From NCBI GenBank assembly GCA_016287565.1, contig JAEFAM010000002.1, positions 7,648-71,647 of the forward strand: a stretch of 64,000 nucleotides of DNA, read 5' to 3'. Shown one piece after another: positions 12,674 through 45,607 of the stretch; position 1 is the stretch's first letter, and each line of letters opens with the position of its first letter. Both the position numbers and the translations under genes were made by a program. The notes beneath the pieces are model-generated. The model was not told the DNA's origin, searched no databases, and saw only the letters and a program-made list of their open reading frames with translations. Source of the stretch: Clostridia bacterium. GTDB taxonomy: Bacteria; Bacillota; Clostridia; UBA1212; UBA1255.

Positions 12674-13507
12674 TCAGTCCGTTTTGAAGTTTTTGTCGCG
12701 GTTCTTAAAATGCTTCACAATCATTTCCACTATCCCGCTTAAGACGGACAACGCAGCCAGCGCGATGATGACTATCATGATCACGCCGCCAGCGGAAGAA
12801 GTGTTGTTCTTGCCCTCTCCCTCCGGAACTTCGAACTTGATGACGTTGCCGTTGTACGTGGGCACCGGCGTGGCGTTCGGATCCCGCGTGACCTCCGGCG
12901 TCCCGGTCGCATCTGCGTCTTCCGTCGCTTCAGGGTCGATTTCGCCCTTCTCTTCCGGGTCGATCGCGCCCGCTTCTTCCGGGTCAATCGCGCCCGTCGC
13001 TTCCGGGTCCATCGCGCCCGTCTCTTCCAGGTCCATCGCACCCGTCGCTTCCGCCAGATCCGTCAATACGGTCTCCGCCTGCCCCGCCGCATCGAGCGCG
13101 GCAACGTCCGCCATCTCCGCCTCAGCGAGCATGGCAACGTCCGCCTTCTCCGCCTGCTCAGCCTCAGAGAGTGGGGCAACGTCCGCCTTCTCCGCCTCAG
13201 CGAGCATGGCAACGTCCGCCTTCTCCGCCTGCTCAGCCTCAGAGAGTGGGGCAACGTCCGCTATCTCCGCCTGCTCTGCCGCAGAGAGTGGGGCAACGTC
13301 CGCTATCTCCGCCTGCGGGATCTCGCCGGCCTCGGCAAATACAGGCGCGTGAGCGGCGGCGAGGCACAGCACGGCAATGACGATCAGCGCGGCAATAAAT
13401 GCCGCTTTCCTGCTGCCGCAATTTGCTGTTTTCCCGAACCAGCGGTGTTTCATAACAGGCACACACCCCCACGGTGGTATTGTACCATCGAAGGCGTTTT
13501 TTGGCAA
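12674..13507 (-). CDS. Secreted/membrane-anchored acidic tandem-repeat protein
   Basis: Signal-like hydrophobic segment (likely start MKHRWFGK at 13453). Repeats ADVAPLSEAEQAEK/ADVAMLAEAE and a C-terminal TM anchor. The repeats are also visible at the DNA level. Confidence 0.55.
   Translation of the reverse strand: MPKNAFDGTIPPWGCVPVMKHRWFGKTANCGSRKAAFIAALIVIAVLCLAAAHAPVFAEAGEIPQAEIADVAPLSAAEQAEIADVAPLSEAEQAEKADVAMLAEAEKADVAPLSEAEQAEKADVAMLAEAEMADVAALDAAGQAETVLTDLAEATGAMDLEETGAMDPEATGAIDPEEAGAIDPEEKGEIDPEATEDADATGTPEVTRDPNATPVPTYNGNVIKFEVPEGEGKNNTSSAGGVIMIVIIALAALSVLSGIVEMIVKHFKNRDKNFKTD
13100..13320. repeat. In-gene tandem DNA repeats (33 plus 42 bp compound unit) that encode the acidic peptide repeats
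   Basis: GCAACGTCCGCCTTCTCCGCCTCAGCGAGCATG alternating with GCAACGTCCGCCTTCTCCGCCTGCTCAGCCTCAGAGAGTGGG. Confidence 0.7.
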
Positions 13508-13539: not shown

Positions 13540-13815
13540 CTGTGCAAAGTGATCTTCGCCTGCGGCGAGTGATCTTCGGCCTGACGGCCGAGTGATATTG
13601 CGCGGGGCGCAGTGATATTCGCCATACGGCGAGTGGTGTTGCGCGGCGCGAGCAGCTAAATTCGACTTCGTCGAGCGAAATTGAACCCTGACTGTTTAGC
13701 GGGGCTTTTCAGGGTTCAGCTAAATGCGACTTCGTCGCGCTAAATTCGTGCTGTCACACGAGCTAAATTCCGCATTGCGAGCAGTGAAATTCGACTTCGT
13801 CGAGGAAAATTGATC
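13540..13815. repeat. Array of mini-hairpins separated by the conserved octamer GTGATATT/GCTAAATT (top-strand orientation)
   Basis: About 12 units of roughly 20 nt. Each is an 11-16 nt palindrome (for example CGCCTGCGGCG, TGCGCGGGGCGCA, CGACTTCGTCG) followed by GTGATCTT, GTGATATT, GCTAAATT or GTGAAATT. Confidence 0.8.
13681..13719. repeat. Conserved hairpin class 2 (TTGAACCCTGA-loop-TCAGGGTTCAG) followed by CTAAAT
   Basis: 10-bp stem with a 19-nt loop. The same stem with a different loop occurs at 21208..21245. Confidence 0.7.
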
Positions 13816-13885
13816 TTCGGTCGGAGGGATTGATCTCTTCCTTCGCTCATACCAAAGGCCTTGCTCTGTCTCCGAGAGGCAGATG

Positions 13886-14142
13886 AACGAAAAACGCCCA
13901 CATTTTACCGCTCCTTTCAAATTTCTGGGCGTTTTGAAGAAGGACGCTCTGTCTATTAGCTTTAAACGAGCGGAAAACGCCCACATTTTACCGTTTCTTT
14001 CGAATTTCCGGGCGTTTTGAAGAAGGTGGCGCTGCCTCTGAAGCTTGAAATGAGCGAGAAACGCCCACATTTTACCGTTTCTTTCGAATTTCTGGGCGTT
14101 TTGAAGAAGGTGGCGCTGCCTCTGAGCTTGAAACGAGCGATA
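13886..14142. repeat. Three tandem copies of an 83-bp unit, each with a 9-bp-stem hairpin AAACGCCCA-25 nt-TGGGCGTTT
   Basis: Unit starts at 13892, 13975 and 14058, nearly identical. The track ORF 13720..14190(-) is a translation artefact of this repeat. Confidence 0.8.
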
Positions 14143-14189
14143 ATATAGCTGGACCCTGACGTGCTCGAGCAAAAAGCCGGAAGGGTCCA

Positions 14190-14644
14190 ATTTAGCCGAA
14201 GCAGCAGGCTTCGATTTAGCTGTGAGCGCCAGCGAACAATTTAACTGAAGGCCGCAGGTTCCATTGTCTCTGAAAGCCTGCGGTCTTCAGTTTCACTCGC
14301 GCGCCAGCGCGAATTTAGCTCGGCCGTCAGGCCGAATTTAACTGCCGCAAAGAGGCAATTTAGCTTGACGAAGTCGAATTTAGCTGCTCGCCTCGCAAGC
14401 AATTTCGCTCGCGCGTCAGCGCGAACATCACTCCGCGAAGCGGAATATCACTTGCCCGCAGGGCAAATATCACTCGCGCGCCAGCGCGAATTTAGCTCGG
14501 CCGTCAGGCCGAATATCCCTCGCCGCAGGCGAATATCACTCGGCTCCAGTCTGACGTCAGGCCGAATATCCCTCGCCGCAGGCGAATATCACTCGGCTCC
14601 AGTCTGACGTCAGGCCGAATATCACCGCGGCTCCCACCTGCTCC
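14190..14644. repeat. Array of mini-hairpins with octamers AATTTAGC/AATATCAC (opposite orientation to 13540..13815), ending in 2.5 copies of a 59-bp unit
   Basis: Units such as CTCGCGCGCCAGCGCG-AATTTAGCT, CGGCCGTCAGGCCG-AATATCCCT and CGCCGCAGGCG-AATATCACT. The 59-bp unit contains the palindrome CTGACGTCAG. The array abuts the GH3 stop codon. Confidence 0.8.
14247..14288. repeat. Conserved hairpin class 1 (GAARRCCGCAGGYT-CCATTGTCTCTGAAA-AGCCTGCGGYYTTC)
   Basis: 14-bp stem. The loop is identical to the copy at 26787..26828 and differs by one nucleotide (CCATTGTCACTGAAA) from the copy at 24584..24625. Stem differences between copies are compensatory. Confidence 0.8.
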
Positions 14645-21122: not shown

Positions 21123-21205
21123 ATGACACCTCCGGAATGTATTTCGGTTTTTCGTTGGGTCAATTGTACCAAAAAAAGTGGTGGTTGTCCATCGGGAAAA
21201 GCGAA

Positions 21206-21325
21206 TGTTGAACCCTGATATGTTGTCAGAAAATTCAGGGTTCAGCTAAATTCGTCCTGACGAACGAGCGGAATTCGTCCTGGCGGGCGGGCGAAATTGC
21301 TCGCGTGGCGAGCGGCTCTTGTTTA
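21206..21325. repeat. Class-2 hairpin plus a short mini-hairpin/octamer array in the fucI upstream region
   Basis: TTGAACCCTGA-20 nt-TCAGGGTTCAG, then CTAAATT-CGTCCTGACGAACGA-GCGGAATT-CGTCCTGGCGGGCGGGCG-AAATTG-CTCGCGTGGCGAGCGG. Confidence 0.7.
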
Positions 21326-24469: not shown

Positions 24470-24655
24470 ATGCGCGAAGGAAATATTTAGCCGCTCGCCA
24501 CGCGGGCAACATCACTCCGCGAAGCGGAATTTCGCTCGCGCCAAAGCGCGAATTTAGCTGGATCCGCAGGCTTCAATTTAGCTGAAAACCGCAGGCTCCA
24601 TTGTCACTGAAAGCCTGCGGTTTTCAATTTAGCTCGGCATAGAGGGCTATCACTT
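24470..24655. repeat. Mini-hairpin/octamer array plus a class-1 hairpin between convergent genes
   Basis: CCGCTCGCCACGCGGGC-AACATCACT-CCGCGAAGCGG-AATTTCGCT-CGCGCCAAAGCGCG-AATTTAGCT-GGATCCGCAGGCTTC-AATTTAGCT-[class-1 hairpin 24584..24625]-AATTTAGCT. Confidence 0.8.
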
Positions 24656-37843: not shown

Positions 37844-38626
37844 TCAGGTCGTCGAGGTGCCGCTGCTTCCGTAGCCCCTCTGGTATTCGTATTTGCCGCC
37901 TTTAAACGATTCGTGGATATCCGGAATGTCGCCCAGATAACGGACGCCGCTGATATTTGCCAGATCCTCGCCGCTCTTCAGGGATGTGTCAAGCATATAG
38001 ATGGCAAGTATCACCGCCACGCTGGCAACCAGTCCGATCAGGCCTCCGATCAGGCCGTTCCTCACCGCGTTGGATTTGTCCGCGCTCCTGGCTCTTGAGG
38101 CGTGGTTGAACACGTCAACGGTGCAGCCGATATACGCGTCTTTTACCATCGTTCCGGCATCTTCCCCTACTATCTCGCAGATGGCGTAGGACAGATCCGG
38201 ATCGTAGGTGGTTGCCTTAACGTGTATGATCTCCGAAGCGTCGGAGTCCGTGGATACTCTAAGGTATTTGCTCAGCTGTGTAGCCGTGACGCCGGCGTAC
38301 TTCTCGTCCTGGGCCCTGAGCTTTTCGGCCATGGACCTGAGGCTGTCGGACTTTTTGATCGCCTTTACGTACAGCGCCGCTACGTTTCGCCTTATATTGA
38401 TCTGCGAGGTGGTGACGGTGGCTTGAGATGACTCGTCGTCCGCCGACTTCATTATCGTATAGAGCTGGATCTCAGAGGTGTAAGTGGGTTTCCAGGTCAG
38501 GCGCGTGACAAGATACGCCGCCAGGGCAAGAACGAACGCGCTCAGGATGACCCAGATGATATTGTTCCAGACTACGAGCAATAACTTACCGAGATCGATA
38601 GCCGAATCTTTCGATTTTTCTTCCAT
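37844..38626 (-). CDS. CpsC/YwqC-type Wzz-domain modulator (transmembrane activator of the BY-kinase)
   Basis: Two TM helices flanking a periplasmic-type Wzz segment; position immediately upstream of the kinase. Confidence 0.7.
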   Translation of the reverse strand: MEEKSKDSAIDLGKLLLVVWNNIIWVILSAFVLALAAYLVTRLTWKPTYTSEIQLYTIMKSADDESSQATVTTSQINIRRNVAALYVKAIKKSDSLRSMAEKLRAQDEKYAGVTATQLSKYLRVSTDSDASEIIHVKATTYDPDLSYAICEIVGEDAGTMVKDAYIGCTVDVFNHASRARSADKSNAVRNGLIGGLIGLVASVAVILAIYMLDTSLKSGEDLANISGVRYLGDIPDIHESFKGGKYEYQRGYGSSGTSTT

Positions 38627-38749
38627 TACTCTTCTCCGATTTTAAAAACATTAAAAAAGCGATGGCATAAAACCACGGATAGGATTTTACCACATTCAGG
38701 GAGGTAAAACAACCCTTTTTTCAATTTGAAAAACCGGCAGATTTGTGCT

Positions 38750-39275
38750 AAATTTAGGGGCGGGGCGCAGTGATATTCTGCTTCGCAGAGTGATATTGCG
38801 CGGGGCGCAGTGATATTGTGCTTCGCACAGCTAAATTACTCGCTTGCGCTCGCAGCTAAATTGCGTGCAGGGCACGCAGCTAAATCGAAGCCGTCCGGCT
38901 TCGGCTAAATTGACCTTCGGTCAGCTAAGCTCGGTTGCGGCGAGTGATATTGCGCGAAGCGCAGTGATATTCTGCTTCGCAGAGTGATATTGCGCGGGGC
39001 GCAGTGATATTCTGCTTCGCAGAGTGATATTGCGCGGGGCACAGTGATATTGTGCTTCGCACAGCTAAATTACTCGCTTGCGCTCGCAGCTAAATTGCGT
39101 GCAGGGCAAATTAAGCTGTTCGCGCCAGCGAACGATATCACTCGGCGAAGCCGAACATCACTCGCACGCAAGTGCGAATATCACTGCGAGTGTTAACGAG
39201 CAATATCACTTGGCGTAGCCGAACATCACTCGCACGCCGGTGCGAATATCACTGCTCATACCAGCGAGCAACAGG
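38750..39275. repeat. Large mini-hairpin/octamer array that switches orientation near 39115 (GTGATATT/GCTAAATT units, then GATATCACT/GAACATCACT units)
   Basis: Units of about 20 nt: TGCGCGGGGCGCA-GTGATATT, CTGCTTCGCAG-A-GTGATATT, GTGCTTCGCAC-AGCTAAATT and so on. A 150-bp block (38760-38910) is duplicated at 38950-39110. The right arm reads CGGCGAAGCCG-AACATCACT, CGCACGCAAGTGCG-AATATCACT. Confidence 0.8.
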
Positions 39276-39288
39276 AGGCGCATGATAA

Positions 39289-39948
39289 TTGGAGCCGATC
39301 TGCTTTTCGAATAGAGATCTTGAGAGCATAGAACGCTCCGCGGCGCCTGGTGATTCGGGCGCCGAAGGGCTGCTTATTGCCGTTTTGGATAACGTGAAGC
39401 AGAAGATCCGCTCCGGCTCCCCTTTCGAGGAGGAGCCCCATATATTGCTGCGGGAGACCGGCGGGAAAGTCTCGCTGTATACAAATTATTTCCTCCGGAA
39501 TCAGGCTGCAGGCGGAGGCTTTGCGGACCTGGTCTTTTCTGATGAGTTTCTTGCCGGACTGGCGGAAGAGATATGCGACCGTTCGTTGACGGAACGGGAG
39601 CCGGAGCAGGGCGCAGGAGCGGGAACTGCAGAAGGAGAGCTGCCGGACGAAGATATTGCCGCATACGCGGGAAGGATTGCCGCAAAAGTGGCGGAAAAAG
39701 AGCGTGAGCAGGAAGCCGCGGAGAGCGCCGGAGGTTTGAGCCGGACGGGCCGCAATATAATGCTCAGGATGATACATTTTTGCGCCGGGAGCGGCGGAAG
39801 AGGCGATAAAAAAGGAAAGCTCCTTTCGAAGCTTTCCGTTAACGTTATTGACATGGCCGTGTCCGGATGTTCCGGCGCCCGGTCGAAGGAAGATCTGTCA
39901 GTGCTGGACGCCGCGGGTCATTTTCTCGGCATCGTCACCCGTTCATAA
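39289..39948 (+). CDS. Hypothetical protein (Ala/Glu/Gly-rich)
   Basis: ORF only. The only start in frame is TTG. No motif. Low-complexity middle region. Confidence 0.3.
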   Translation: MEPICFSNRDLESIERSAAPGDSGAEGLLIAVLDNVKQKIRSGSPFEEEPHILLRETGGKVSLYTNYFLRNQAAGGGFADLVFSDEFLAGLAEEICDRSLTEREPEQGAGAGTAEGELPDEDIAAYAGRIAAKVAEKEREQEAAESAGGLSRTGRNIMLRMIHFCAGSGGRGDKKGKLLSKLSVNVIDMAVSGCSGARSKEDLSVLDAAGHFLGIVTRS

Positions 39949-42961: not shown

Positions 42962-44158
42962 TCAGAGCCAGTAAAGTTCTTCGAATATGGACATTGCGTA
43001 GGCGTCGGTCATGCCGGCTATGTAGTCGACGGTGATCTGTTCCGGAAGCGTTCCGGGCTCATACGCTTTTTCCTGTATGTACTTGATAAGGCGGGTGTCC
43101 AGGCGGTCGGGACCGTCGATGGAAGACATATCGAGGGCGCCGTATGAATCGACCTTGTCCTCCGCCTTGCCGAGCAGAGCGCAGACGCGGTTGTAGACCG
43201 CTTCGAAAAGGCCTTCTACGATGTTGTTGGTATTGGCCTCGTACCGCTTGATCATATCGGACTTGTATATCTTTTTGTAGTTCAGCTCGATCATCTCGCG
43301 CAGTGCCTGGCCGCACTCGTCGCTGAGGCGGATCTCGTCACGCTGGTAGCTGTTCTCCAGAAGGTCCTCCACCAGGGTGTTGATCATCTGGCCGTTGGTG
43401 GCGCCCAGCGTGGAACGGATGTCCTCCGGAATGCCGCTGTAGTCCATCATCTTGGCCCTGATGGCGTCTTCGATGTCCCGGCCCACGTAGGCTATCTTAT
43501 CCACCAGCCTCACCACACAGCCCTCCATAGTGGCAGGCATCTCCACGCGGTGCTCGCAGGTGTATATCTTCGACGGATCCTTTTTTCTGTTGGGCCGCAG
43601 GATGTATTCGTCAACGTTCTCGCCGCAGTGGCTCACGATGCCGTCCCGCACTTCGTACGTCAGGTTCAGGCCGCACTTGGACAATATCTTCTCCTGCGAT
43701 ATGCGGGTGGAAAGGCGGTCAACGACTCTCAGGCTGTGATATTCATGGCGGAACCGCAGCGCCGGATTGACCTTGTTCAGGCACTGATCCAGCTTTCTCT
43801 CGCCGCTGTGGCCGAAAGGCGCGTGGCCTATGTCGTGGCCCAGGGCAATGGCGGAGATCAGATCCTGGTTCAGCCCGAGAGTCCTGCCTATGGTGGTGGA
43901 TATGGAATTCACATACAGGACGTGCTCCATGCGGGTGCACACGTGGTCGTTCTTGGCGTTGAAGAACACCTGCGTCTTGTGCCTCAGCCGCCTGAAATCC
44001 TCCGAGTAGAGGATCCTGTTGGCGTCACGCTCGAATATTGACCGAACGTGGCATTCGGGCTCGTCGCTGAGGCGGCCCTTGCTGTCTCTGGCCCTGGTGG
44101 CCAGGGGGCTCAGCGTTTCTTCCTGTTTTAATCTTATCTCGCGCCAGGTCTCCGGCAT
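42962..44158 (-). CDS. dGTPase-like HD-domain deoxynucleoside triphosphate triphosphohydrolase
   Basis: HD motif ALGHDIGHAPFGH and overall dGTPase architecture. Start at ATG 44158 (MPETW) with AGGAGG Shine-Dalgarno. Confidence 0.75.
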   Translation of the reverse strand: MPETWREIRLKQEETLSPLATRARDSKGRLSDEPECHVRSIFERDANRILYSEDFRRLRHKTQVFFNAKNDHVCTRMEHVLYVNSISTTIGRTLGLNQDLISAIALGHDIGHAPFGHSGERKLDQCLNKVNPALRFRHEYHSLRVVDRLSTRISQEKILSKCGLNLTYEVRDGIVSHCGENVDEYILRPNRKKDPSKIYTCEHRVEMPATMEGCVVRLVDKIAYVGRDIEDAIRAKMMDYSGIPEDIRSTLGATNGQMINTLVEDLLENSYQRDEIRLSDECGQALREMIELNYKKIYKSDMIKRYEANTNNIVEGLFEAVYNRVCALLGKAEDKVDSYGALDMSSIDGPDRLDTRLIKYIQEKAYEPGTLPEQITVDYIAGMTDAYAMSIFEELYWL

Positions 44159-44169
44159 TGGCGACACCT

Positions 44170-44640
44170 CCTGTTGTTAGTGGGAAACGGGAAATGGCAA
44201 GTGGCAAATGGCAAGTGGGAAATGGAAAATGGCAAATGGCAAGTGGGAAATGGAAAATTATATTTTCCTCATTTTCAATCTGCACTTCTCGCTTTGCGTT
44301 TTTCAATTTCCGATTTGCAATTTCCAATTTGCAATTCTCAACTGGCAAGTGGGAAATGGCAAGTGGCAAATGGCAAATGGGAAATGATAATATCCTTTTC
44401 TCCTTTTCGATTTTCAACTATTCACTTGCAATTTGCAATTTCCAATTTGCAATTTTCTATCTTCCCCTTTTAATTTGCAATTTGCAATTTCCAATTTGCA
44501 ATTTTCAATTTGCAATTTCCAATTGTCACTTCGCAACTTTTAATTTGCAATTTGCCATTTGCAATTTGCAATTTTCAATTTGCAATTCTCCATTTGCCAT
44601 TTGCCATTTGCCATTTGCAATTTGCAATTTGCAACTAATC
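44170..44640. repeat. 470-bp intergenic block of heptanucleotide tandem repeats G[CG]AA[AG]TG alternating with complementary-orientation blocks CAATTT[GC]/CATTTGC
   Basis: Block 44175-44265 is (GCAAGTG/GCAAATG/GGAAATG/GAAAATG)n. Block 44300-44335 is (CAATTTC/CAATTTG)n. Block 44336-44385 is again (GSAARTG)n. Block 44420-44640 is (CAATTTG/CCATTTG)n. The track ORFs here (44025..44417, 44158..44679, 44174..44473, 44559..44771) are repeat translations. Confidence 0.85.
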
Positions 44641-44641
44641 C

Positions 44642-45607
44642 TCACGCCCACCACATCTCTCCCGCCTGCTCGAATATGAGCACTTCCTTCAGGAATTCGA
44701 TGGCTTTGTTGAGGCCTTCTTTGGGAGACATCAGCGAATCTTCGTGCTCGATGCTCACCACGTCGTCGTAGCCCACTTTCTTGAGCATGCTGACGATCTC
44801 TTTCCAGGTGGCAAGGTCGTGGCCGTAGCCCATTGTGCGGAACACCCAGGCGCGGTGGAGCACGTCGCCGTAATGCTTGGTGTCCAGCACGCCGTTCTTA
44901 GCTACGTTGGCGTCGTCCAGCTTAACGTCTTTGCCGTGGAAATAATATACGGCGTCGCCCAGTTCGCGGATGGCTTCCACCGGATCCATCCCCTGCCAGA
45001 ACAGGTGGCTGGGATCCACGTTGGCGCCGATCATATCTCCTACCGCCGCTCTCAGTTTAAGCAGCGTTTCGGGGTTGTACACGCAGAATCCGGGGTGCAT
45101 CTCGAATGCGATCTTCTCGATACCGTGGGCAGCGGCAAATTCGGCGGTCTTCTTCCAGTAAGGGATCAACACTTCGTTCCACTGGTAGTCCAGTATCTTC
45201 AGGAAATCGTCGGGCCAGGGGCAGGTCACCCAGTTGGGATATTTGGAATCGGGGCAATCTCCGGGGCAGCCCGAGAAGCCTACGATGCGCTTTACTCCAA
45301 GCTTTTCCGCCAGCAGTATGGCGTCGATGAAATCCTCGTGGAAGGCCGAAGCCACTTTCTTATCCGGATGCACGGGGTTGCCGTGGCAGGAAAGCGCGGA
45401 GATCTCCAGGCCGTTGCCGCAGATGGCGGCCTTGAACTCGTCGAGCTTTTTGGGATCGGAAAGCAGGACCTTGGGGTCCGCGTGAGCCTTGCCCGGGAAG
45501 CCGCCGCAGCCTATCTCTACGCACTGCACTCCCTGGCCTGCCAGGTATTTCATGGCGTCCGCCAGTTTCATCTCGCCTAAAACTACGTTAAAAACTCCTA
45601 ATTTCAT
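44642..45607 (-). CDS. Xylose-isomerase-like TIM-barrel sugar phosphate isomerase/epimerase
   Basis: AP-endonuclease-2/xylose-isomerase fold pattern (IEHED, metal-binding His/Glu/Asp positions). Confidence 0.6.
   Translation of the reverse strand: MKLGVFNVVLGEMKLADAMKYLAGQGVQCVEIGCGGFPGKAHADPKVLLSDPKKLDEFKAAICGNGLEISALSCHGNPVHPDKKVASAFHEDFIDAILLAEKLGVKRIVGFSGCPGDCPDSKYPNWVTCPWPDDFLKILDYQWNEVLIPYWKKTAEFAAAHGIEKIAFEMHPGFCVYNPETLLKLRAAVGDMIGANVDPSHLFWQGMDPVEAIRELGDAVYYFHGKDVKLDDANVAKNGVLDTKHYGDVLHRAWVFRTMGYGHDLATWKEIVSMLKKVGYDDVVSIEHEDSLMSPKEGLNKAIEFLKEVLIFEQAGEMWWA

Follow-up and report, generated by a model that had tools for sequence, protein, structure and literature searches.

An expanded and hypervariable Gut-1 repeat array beside the cpsCDB genes of a Clostridia bacterium

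Introduction

The Gut-1 RNA was described as three hairpins joined by GUGAAAU linkers, found in 43 human-gut metagenome sequences with no host organism and of unknown function, and it was listed as a likely noncoding RNA on the basis of covariation (Weinberg et al. 2010, Genome Biol 11:R31, PMC2864571). We found no literature on Gut-1 or its Rfam entry RF01706 beyond this 2010 description, and for GTGAAAT hairpin repeats only unrelated papers. Here we analyze a hairpin array from a Clostridia bacterium, contained in a 64,000-nucleotide stretch of contig JAEFAM010000002.1 (positions 7,648 to 71,647; hereafter the window), where it separates cpsC, the first gene of cpsC-cpsD-cpsB, from a divergent open reading frame (ORF) of 219 aa. 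The array is an expanded, hypervariable form of this known but functionally orphan family, and we think it probable that the locus represents an unusually expanded, fast-evolving array of a repeat family dispersed through gut and rumen Clostridia, similar in kind to the repetitive extragenic palindromic (REP) sequences and bacterial interspersed mosaic elements (BIMEs) of other bacteria.

With Gut-1 the array shares consecutive short hairpins, the conserved G-U-G-A-A/U-A-U linker and an uncultured gut host. It differs in extent, with 17 forward units and a seven-tag reverse arm in place of the three hairpins described. Its tags fall into two classes, GUGAUAUU and GCUAAAUU, it possesses a reverse arm at all, it is hypervariable from strain to strain, and it lies at the 5' ends of genes.

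The REP and BIME sequences of Enterobacteria and Pseudomonas, including the REPINs, are likewise abundant extragenic palindromic units, 20–40 bp long with a short end tag, which cluster in arrays 3' of genes or between convergent genes at locations that vary between strains. A REP tag is defined as a GTAG or CGTC tetranucleotide at one end of the palindrome (PMC3733652), and E. coli REP arrays act as terminators and stabilizers in 3' untranslated regions (3' UTRs; bioRxiv 10.64898/2026.03.23.713779). Whereas REP stems are conserved within a family and REP units alternate in orientation, the Gut-1 hairpins vary freely from unit to unit and run head-to-tail within each arm with a single switch between arms, and the host of the Gut-1 arrays is a Firmicute.

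Among Firmicutes, the BOX elements of Streptococcus pneumoniae and the STAR elements of Staphylococcus aureus are modular intergenic repeats of variable module number, and they resemble the array in their predicted stable secondary structure and in their variation between strains. Their modules are longer (boxB about 45 nt; STAR about 40-nt spacing) and conserved in sequence, and neither system is known to have the grammar of a constant tag with a perfect hairpin of free sequence or an arrangement in two inverted arms. CRISPR arrays also alternate a constant short sequence with variable segments whose content depends on the strain; however, CRISPR repeats are 24–48 bp with unique, non-palindromic spacers, whereas the constant part here is 8 nt and the variable part is an 11–17-nt palindromic hairpin rather than captured foreign DNA. 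Many small Gut-1 arrays occur in each genome, at gene ends, and no cas domains were found among the annotated neighbor genes of the array, so that a CRISPR array was ruled out.

Structure of the array

The sequence resolves into 17 forward units followed by seven reverse tags with their hairpins (Table 1), each unit consisting of an 8-nt tag and a perfect or near-perfect hairpin that occupies the entire spacer up to the next tag. The forward tags span 38747–39096 (starts at 38747, 38770, 38790, 38810, 38830, 38855, 38879, 38904, 38924, 38944, 38964, 38984, 39004, 39024, 39044, 39064 and 39089) and read, in order, one GCTAAATT, three GTGATATT, four GCTAAATT/C, one GCTAAGCT, six GTGATATT and two GCTAAATT, which gives nine GTGATATT, seven GCTAAATT/C and one GCTAAGCT; the period is 20 nt in the GTGATATT units and about 25 nt in the GCTAAATT units. 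The reverse arm starts with a degenerate reversed tag, AATTAAGC (39109–39116), and continues with six tags at 39134–39252 (starts at 39134, 39154, 39177, 39202, 39222 and 39245) that read GATATCAC, AACATCAC, AATATCAC twice, AACATCAC and AATATCAC. It contains an internal 68-nt duplication (39129–39196 against 39197–39264, 81%), and Tandem Repeats Finder (TRF) reports periods of 20, 40 and 68 nt within 38768–39271.

An array of this kind is far above chance. On both strands of the window GTGATATT occurs 24 times where 1.07 copies are expected, and GCTAAATT 18 times against 1.63, an enrichment of 11-22-fold; none of 100 shuffles reached 24 copies of the former and no shuffle attained 18 of the latter. 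The array also folds better than its shuffled versions, both as DNA (z = -7.6) and as RNA (z = -9.0). An assembly artefact was ruled out by the identical sequence of two metagenome contigs besides the window.

A sequence-only reading of the window had already placed a hairpin and octamer array here, between the minus-strand cpsC start at 38626 and a divergent ORF, with an orientation switch at about 39110–39125, and unit parsing, Pfam and the ORFs bear out each of these points. The same reading described a duplicated block of 150 bp. A duplication is present, but it measures 115 nt, or about five units, and the second copy proposed at 38950 corresponds to a register at 38954 that matches at only 72% and is the same duplication seen in the neighboring 40-nt register. 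At 99% identity, the 115-nt block is by its sequence a recent duplication. The description of the whole locus as a large imperfect palindrome applies to the tags and to hairpins in the generic sense, but the arms are unequal and their hairpin sequences differ; the best inverted matches between them are 28–34 nt at 82–89%.

Identity with Gut-1 and sister arrays in the window

An Rfam scan of the window (cmscan) matched the array to Gut-1 RNA, for which the gathering score is 50 bits. In the forward arm two plus-strand matches exceed this score (38922–38995, 54.2 bits; 38768–38841, 51.5 bits) and a third falls just below it (39002–39075, 48 bits), and the reverse arm gives sub-threshold matches on the minus strand (39130–39186, 44.3 bits; 39198–39277, 36.8 bits). 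In the alignments all three hairpins of the model are paired, and the linkers, GUGAUAU(U) or GCUAAAU(U), are one or two substitutions from the GUGAAAU consensus. The host agrees as well, as the window proteins cluster with entries labeled 'MAG: Clostridia bacterium' (MAG, metagenome-assembled genome) and related arrays lie almost entirely in MAGs of gut and rumen Clostridia.

The cps-adjacent array is one of four to five in the window, which together hold about 57 units in the intergenic regions of the 64 kb; with units of 20–25 bp, both size and copy number are as in REP and BIME sequences. The neighbors of the sister arrays are a GH3 glycosidase, a fucose isomerase, an extracytoplasmic function (ECF) sigma factor and an AMP-binding enzyme (Pfam). 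Sister array A, the largest (about 8+18 units), gives the highest Gut-1 score (14397–14475, minus strand, 66.1 bits), and its reverse arm starts 20 nt past the stop codon of the GH3 gene. The gene end nearest to array C is the 3' end of the AMP-binding gene, on the minus strand, and array D lies in the divergent region between the fucose isomerase and ECF sigma factor genes. Some unit types of the cps-adjacent array recur in the other arrays of the window, as would be expected if arrays exchange units or if the sequence space is small. Array A has three tandem 84-nt repeats at its centre (13888–14140), each with AAAACGCCCA...TGGGCGTTTT, an A-tract/hairpin/T-tract that resembles a bidirectional terminator with an unusually long loop.

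The locus in close and distant relatives

Close relatives show how quickly the array changes. In L121, a relative about 94% identical to the window, the locus is collinear with flanks 92–97% identical, and the 120 bp beside cpsC and the reverse arm are kept; the forward arm, however, cannot be aligned (window 38764–39094, 331 nt, against 262 nt) and consists of about eight units, mostly with different hairpins and with an earlier change to reverse-type units. A further relative, L122, has a two-unit duplication in the reverse arm and forward units that are different again; the reverse arm is conserved in both relatives. At greater distance there is no array at all: in 20 syntenic loci from two species groups (about 70–80% nucleotide identity) the genes sua5, upp, ORF, cpsC, cpsD and cpsB follow one another as in the window, and the intergenic regions, of 226, 243, 262, 414 or 1122 bp, are array-free. 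From this absence, together with the turnover between strains, the array is a recent, lineage-specific acquisition.

Repeat-number variation, as the sequence-only reading had anticipated, is therefore found between close relatives, both in number and in content of units, but the contigs compared from the strain itself gave no sign of it. Two metagenome contigs that encode an identical CpsC (L001 from NCBI and L002 from JGI, one of which may be the source of the window) match the window base for base across the 662-bp intergenic region and 200 bp on each side, and the array is stable enough to have been assembled identically in more than one sample. A metagenome search with CpsC gave 121 pattern matches, 0 of them confirmed.

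These comparisons bear on the possibility that the array is a contingency or regulatory locus, in which a change of unit number, cruciform extrusion or a roadblock protein switches or tunes expression of cpsCDB and/or the divergent ORF. The differences in unit number and content between close relatives speak for it, as do the very favorable folding energy and the array's 80% share of the 662-bp divergent region. Against it stand the identity of the same-strain contigs (with the caveat on their independence given above), the 20 syntenic relatives that manage without an array at the cps locus, and the occurrence of the same repeat beside many unrelated genes, in the window and in other loci.

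Predicted promoters beside the array

The promoter geometry also bears on a role in cps expression. Reading the sequence upstream of cpsC, we found a predicted core promoter with a -35 element TTGTTT (38712–38707), a 17-nt spacer and an extended -10 whose hexamer lies at 38689–38684; a consensus scanner missed it because the -35 element matches at only 3/6 positions. Its GTGGTAAAATCC core, with TTGTTT or TTGTCA upstream, is kept in L121 and in the array-free L148 and L158 groups. Counted from the predicted -35 element, the array starts 35 nt farther upstream, and the cpsC promoter is thus probably located between the array and the gene. The view that the array occupies the whole cps promoter region does not hold, as the roughly 120 bp beside cpsC are free of it and contain this conserved element with or without an array upstream. 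A change in unit number would leave the cpsC -35/-10 spacing unaltered, and for cpsC the array does not have the placement of a contingency locus.

A consensus scan predicts a plus-strand promoter at the edge of the array, back-to-back with that of cpsC, whose -10 element is the first GCTAAATT tag and which is kept in L121 as TTGAAA-17-TGgTAAATT. A transcript from this site would begin near 38761 and run through the whole array toward the 219-aa ORF. This ORF is gene-called on other contigs and has homologues of 82% and 80% identity that cover its full length, so that it is probably a genuine gene restricted to the lineage. The last hairpin ends at 39269, only 3 nt from the AGGAGG of the ORF at 39273, which leaves no room for a promoter, and the promoter of the ORF should therefore be located inside the array or ahead of it. 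On the simplest reading, which is also the more likely, the array makes up a 510-nt 5' leader of the ORF. Expression of the ORF could then depend on the array, which counts in favor of regulation; in a putative leader the array lies neither in a promoter spacer nor in a coding frame. Taking both sides together, we judge a contingency or regulatory locus to be quite improbable, and the case for a capsule regulatory device is weak at most. The best reading is a hypervariable repeat similar to REP and BIME sequences; the analysis gives no indication of a dedicated capsule switch, and a cps-specific role of the array is not supported. For the capsule locus the outcome is accordingly a negative one, and we advise against annotating the array as a cps regulator.

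Architecture and placement across genomes

To place the array in its family we searched one genome from each species for triplets of tags at the spacing of the hairpins, which returned at least 118 loci. A filter for hairpin spacers left 86 among the matches listed, the remainder being unrelated tandem repeats, and the counts in this section and the next are among these listed matches. Nearly all of the 86 loci are in MAGs of gut or rumen Clostridia, assigned to Christensenellaceae, Acutalibacteraceae, Oscillospiraceae, Ruminococcus or 'Eubacteriales', and they adjoin unrelated genes. Gut-1 can now be assigned hosts, namely uncultured Clostridia (Christensenellaceae, Acutalibacteraceae, Oscillospiraceae and relatives). 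Elements typically have about four units per arm, so that the 17 forward units and seven-tag reverse arm at the cps locus, and the about 8+18 units of array A, are exceptional expansions.

Where two arms are paired, the GTGAWAT arm always precedes the ATWTCAC arm (32:0, p = 5e-10). The orientation switch is therefore an invariable trait of the family and nothing special to the cps-adjacent locus. Single arms usually follow closely on the 3' end of a protein or stable-RNA gene, ahead of or behind its intrinsic terminator, and the upstream gene reads into the arm, in the GTGAWAT sense, in 43 cases against 17 in which it reads away (p = 0.001, from crude ORF calls). Several loci show the order of stop codon, array and predicted intrinsic terminator (L076, L041, L059, L077, L080, L060, L072), in several of these with a distinct last tag, GTTRAGG or GTTGTGG, before the terminator; in other loci a tRNA or RNase P RNA gene with a bidirectional terminator precedes the array. 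Some paired elements have a central bidirectional terminator (L086, L088, L089 and array A of the window), and these look like two 3' appendages of convergent transcription that meet tail-to-tail. Gut-1 is thereby recast as a dispersed, 3'-end-associated element of two inverted arms with a fixed polarity and fast turnover between strains.

Local amplification, and the copying of whole modules of array plus terminator, have further examples in two loci: L084 (9–136) has at least five identical tandem units (GTGATATtgcctgcggca) at a contig end, and L072 (4060–4899) has arrays of seven and eight units, each followed by the same terminator.

These features can be joined in a model in which the array was acquired or expanded at the cps-adjacent locus in this lineage only. 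Units may be gained, lost or swapped through slipped-strand mispairing or through recombination between the 8-nt tags, and the hairpins could aid recombination by bringing tags together. If transcribed, the array would form a string of very stable hairpins, and pairing of tags with anti-tags between the two arms could close it into a long rod; RNAfold predicts such a rod, closed over the whole element, for many two-arm elements. By analogy with the REP sequences of E. coli 3' UTRs, the folded array might block exonucleases or read-through and would in this way be a generic insulator or stabilizer rather than a capsule-specific switch, and any effect on cps would be indirect. If arrays do act in this way, they would provide cheap regulatory diversity between strains of abundant gut bacteria.

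Several observations weigh against a REP-like element of this kind. The promoters, the terminators and the barrier function are predictions. The 3' placement typical of REP sequences is found for the family but not for the cps-adjacent array, which lies at two gene 5' ends, and the orientation counts behind the family trend are only as good as the ORF calls. Nineteen of 64 single arms are positioned after a terminator, where little transcription is expected. The tags are GTGAWAT(T)/GCTAAATT (GTGATATT, GTGAAAT) rather than GTAG or CGTC, and no gene for a REP-associated tyrosine transposase (RAYT) was seen beside the arrays, although this is a weak test; because the REP tag is absent and no RAYT was found, we do not file the array as REP. 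Finally, a passive hairpin barrier leaves the conserved tag and the strand-specific loops described below unexplained, and these suggest a specific partner or a single-stranded DNA stage.

Hairpin form and strand signature

We compiled 323 distinct spacers with 1573 pairs in their stems. Of these pairs 1539 are Watson-Crick, 9 are G.T, 14 are A.C and 11 are other. The hairpins are GC-rich, and their form is fixed as a 4–7-bp Watson-Crick stem with a C-G closing pair (92%) and a loop of 3 nt (63%) or 4 nt (31%), within which the sequence is free to vary. On the tag-sense strand the loops read T..C (TTC, TGC, TAC, TTGC, TTAC) and almost never the reverse. On the opposite strand, which is opposite to the Rfam model, they read G..A and form cGNAg triloops and cGNNAg or GNRA tetraloops. 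Among DNA mini-hairpins, cGNAg triloops and cGNNAg tetraloops are well established in biophysics as the most stable motifs.

The near-absence of non-Watson-Crick pairs has two consequences. With 9 G.T against 14 A.C, the wobble pairs have no power to discriminate between strands, and an assignment of the strand by this route was abandoned; with stems almost purely Watson-Crick and without G.U bias, there is no evidence for RNA-level selection on either strand. The loop asymmetry, in turn, implies that the strands are not equivalent and that the favored one is opposite to the Rfam model. Wobble-free stems together with cGNAg and cGNNAg loops on that strand call into question the small RNA label under which Gut-1 is known.

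This bears on a reading in which the array is a free-standing noncoding RNA, transcribed from the predicted plus-strand promoter, whose GUGAUAUU and GCUAAAUU linkers act as a CsrB-like protein sponge, or which yields unit-sized RNAs. It is consistent with the original listing of Gut-1 as a likely noncoding RNA on covariation (PMC2864571), with the promoter-like site at the array edge and its retention in L121, and with a regular linker-plus-hairpin grammar like that of sponge RNAs. The pairing statistics argue the other way: G.U pairs are nearly absent with neither strand favored, triloops predominate, and the stable GNA and GNRA loops are on the wrong strand for the model. Most family members, moreover, are 3' appendages of other genes, and turnover of content at about 94% identity is not expected of a functional RNA gene. 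We regard a free-standing RNA as unlikely.

A second alternative places recognition at the level of DNA. A dedicated protein, which copies or maintains units, would recognize the tag and its C-G-closed GNA or GNNA hairpin in the form of single-stranded or cruciform DNA. Candidates for this protein are an HUH or RAYT-like nuclease and an Avd-like protein, and the arrays would be selfish repeats or binding arrays. It is kept as a rival because the barrier model explains neither the conservation of the tag nor the strandedness of the loops. The almost purely Watson-Crick stems and the 92% C-G closure of loops of the most stable DNA class agree with it; REP-RAYT sites, like oriT and ori nick sites, also have a tag with a hairpin after it; unit types are shared across arrays and strains; and near-identical four-unit arrays stand beside different tRNAs or genes in different MAGs (L005, L015, L042, L071, L107). 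Perfect stems could, however, also be kept by templated quasipalindrome correction during replication, without selection or a dedicated enzyme, and orientation within the window follows the adjacent gene rather than one replication strand.

The conserved tag was also compared with other known sites. TGaTATT and TGcTAAATT resemble extended -10 boxes, but tags as -10 elements were rejected as a general explanation because GTGAAAT tags lack the critical A2. The L007-type subfamily does have a strong TTGAAA-16-TGaTATTAT built from a unit. GTGAAATA resembles the parS half-site GTGAAACA and the NBS half-site GGGAAATA, which would make the tag half of a ParB/Noc site; the arms never meet in the order needed for a full palindromic site, and this reading was set aside.

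The tRNA-linked subfamily and the Avd-like gene

One Pfam family alone recurs among 112 array-flanking ORFs: PF05635 ('23S rRNA intervening sequence protein'), a four-helix bundle related to Avd, the accessory protein of diversity-generating retroelements (DGRs). It stands beside arrays in six species representatives, all of one subfamily or orthologous locus. We recovered further loci through five highly conserved homologues, and at every Avd-like locus with enough upstream sequence a Gut-1 element precedes the gene. The module consists of a tRNA (or RNase P RNA) gene, a bidirectional terminator, the Gut-1 forward arm, a centre, the reverse arm, a strong predicted promoter (TTCACA-17-TGtTATAAT) and the Avd-like gene.

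The module is found, with a two-armed element, at L013, L032, L049, L058, L071, L073 and L123–L147 (for example L124:1232–1848). PF05635 homologues number more than 7900, the top 120 of them at least 83% identical. The upstream tRNA varies between genomes (Pro, Arg, Leu or Trp), and a small MazG-like gene often comes next after the Avd-like gene. Large serine recombinase genes lie beside the tRNA/Gut-1/Avd-like/MazG module in L123, L133, L134, L137, L139, L141 and L142, and in L123 recombinase-side sequence ending ...GCCA takes the place of the tRNA, which suggests that the site is an integration hotspot.

That a Gut-1 element precedes every Avd-like gene examined favors a DNA-level partner; the link does not extend beyond this single subfamily or orthologous locus, and PF05635 is absent from the window. 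Searches for an enzyme were also negative. No RAYT/HUH or transposase gene was found by Pfam among 20 window ORFs around the arrays (the rest of the 64 kb being unannotated) or among the recurrent families of the 112 flanking ORFs, and a tblastn search of about 0.7 Mb with an IS200 TnpA sequence found nothing, which is a weak test. We consider recognition of the tag and hairpin as DNA improbable on this balance.

The tRNA-linked elements have one more feature. In about 30 of the 35 paired elements, tag 1 together with the 5' half of hairpin 1 is perfectly complementary over 10–14 nt to the element's centre, but only in the arm beside the upstream tRNA (for example L124:1258–1375, L071:1585–1700, L007:1554–1650). 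At least nine sequence variants keep this pairing (e.g., AAATTCGTTCC, AAATAAATCC, TTATATTCGCC, GAAATTTGCC), which competes with hairpin 1, and it either provides alternative structures or marks terminal inverted repeats around the arm modeled by Rfam. The Rfam model corresponds to this helix-bracketed arm, only one arm of a larger polar element. Such a covarying long-range helix is a point in favor of the noncoding RNA discussed above. The window arrays lack it, and have only a 12-nt complementarity between their outermost units.

In GTGATAT-type tRNA-linked elements (L007, L016, L021, L055, L081, L093), hairpin 3 and tag 4 of one arm make up a near-consensus TTGAAA-16-TGaTATTAT that points into the other arm. 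As predicted from sequence, it would produce an RNA of about 110 nt from the strand opposite to the Rfam model, ending at the bidirectional terminator of the tRNA.

In a scan of viral contigs 13 of the 120 loci retrieved passed the hairpin-spacer filter, mostly simple coding tandem repeats. True arrays are present in about six (L221, L224, L236, L238, L247, L261), and four of these have the same junction of Gut-1 and Avd-like gene. A phage origin was rejected, and we infer that these junctions are provirus-edge captures of the tRNA-linked locus.

A bolder proposal joins these observations: Gut-1 arrays may be no small RNA at all but a Clostridia-specific counterpart of REP that works through single-stranded DNA. 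A protein would copy or maintain modules of the 8-nt tag with its C-G-closed GNA or GNNA mini-hairpin, and the Avd-like protein would serve as binding partner, or its gene be under an autoregulated operator, at a tRNA-linked founder copy bracketed by the long-range helix. We put this forward as a long shot. If it were true, the hypervariable arrays of the window genome would be products of a repeat-writing process that is currently active, and a dedicated enzyme or binding protein, should there be one, would amount to a new repeat system in Firmicutes. Our preferred reading remains the expanded array of a dispersed, REP-like family.

Features of the window

The coordinates of the arrays and flanking features are collected in Table 1. 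Downstream of cpsC, the minus-strand genes cpsD and cpsB encode a P-loop kinase and a CpsB_CapC protein (Pfam).

Table 1 Arrays, duplicated blocks, genes and predicted promoters (window coordinates)
Feature	Position	Strand	Description and basis
Forward arm	38747..39108	+	17 tag+hairpin units; sequence, unit parsing, TRF, Rfam Gut-1 matches
Reverse arm	39109..39269	+	degenerate tag, 6 hairpin + AAYATCAC units, final hairpin ending 39269
115-nt duplicated block, copy 1	38760..38874	+	about five units; repeat search
115-nt duplicated block, copy 2	38994..39108	+	99% identity to copy 1
Sister array A	13549..14625	.	forward arm about 13549–13830, centre 13888–14140, reverse arm 14190–14625
Sister array C	24485..24634	-	single arm, AATTTAGC/AACATCAC tags, between two convergent genes
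Sister array D	21205..21310	+	long hairpin, then three GCTAAATT/GCGGAATT/GCGAAATT units
cpsC	37844..38626	-	Wzz domain, chain-length/kinase modulator; first gene of cpsC-cpsD-cpsB; Pfam
Predicted cpsC core promoter	38684..38712	-	TTGTTT-17-TGgTAAAAT, read from sequence
Predicted plus-strand promoter	38726..38754	+	TTGAAA-17-TG-c-TAAATT, consensus promoter scan
Ribosome-binding site + 219-aa ORF	39273..39948	+	AGGAGG 39273–39278, TTG start 39289, end 39948

Downstream of upp, a strong hairpin with a T-tract resembling an intrinsic terminator is found on the minus strand at 39814–39837, inside the 3' part of the convergent 219-aa ORF. Beside array A, the minus-strand ORF 12674–13507 contains tandem repeats at 12922–13316 with periods of 24, 33, 42 and 75 nt; it has no Pfam match and is probably a repetitive, low-complexity protein. 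Elsewhere in the window, positions 44151–44642 hold a block of about 490 nt built of heptamer repeats (TGGCAAA, TTGCAAT, TTTCCAA; up to 30 copies), for which the approximately 94%-identical relative L121 has only 46 nt at the corresponding position. This block is a second hypervariable intergenic repeat, different in kind from the Gut-1 array.

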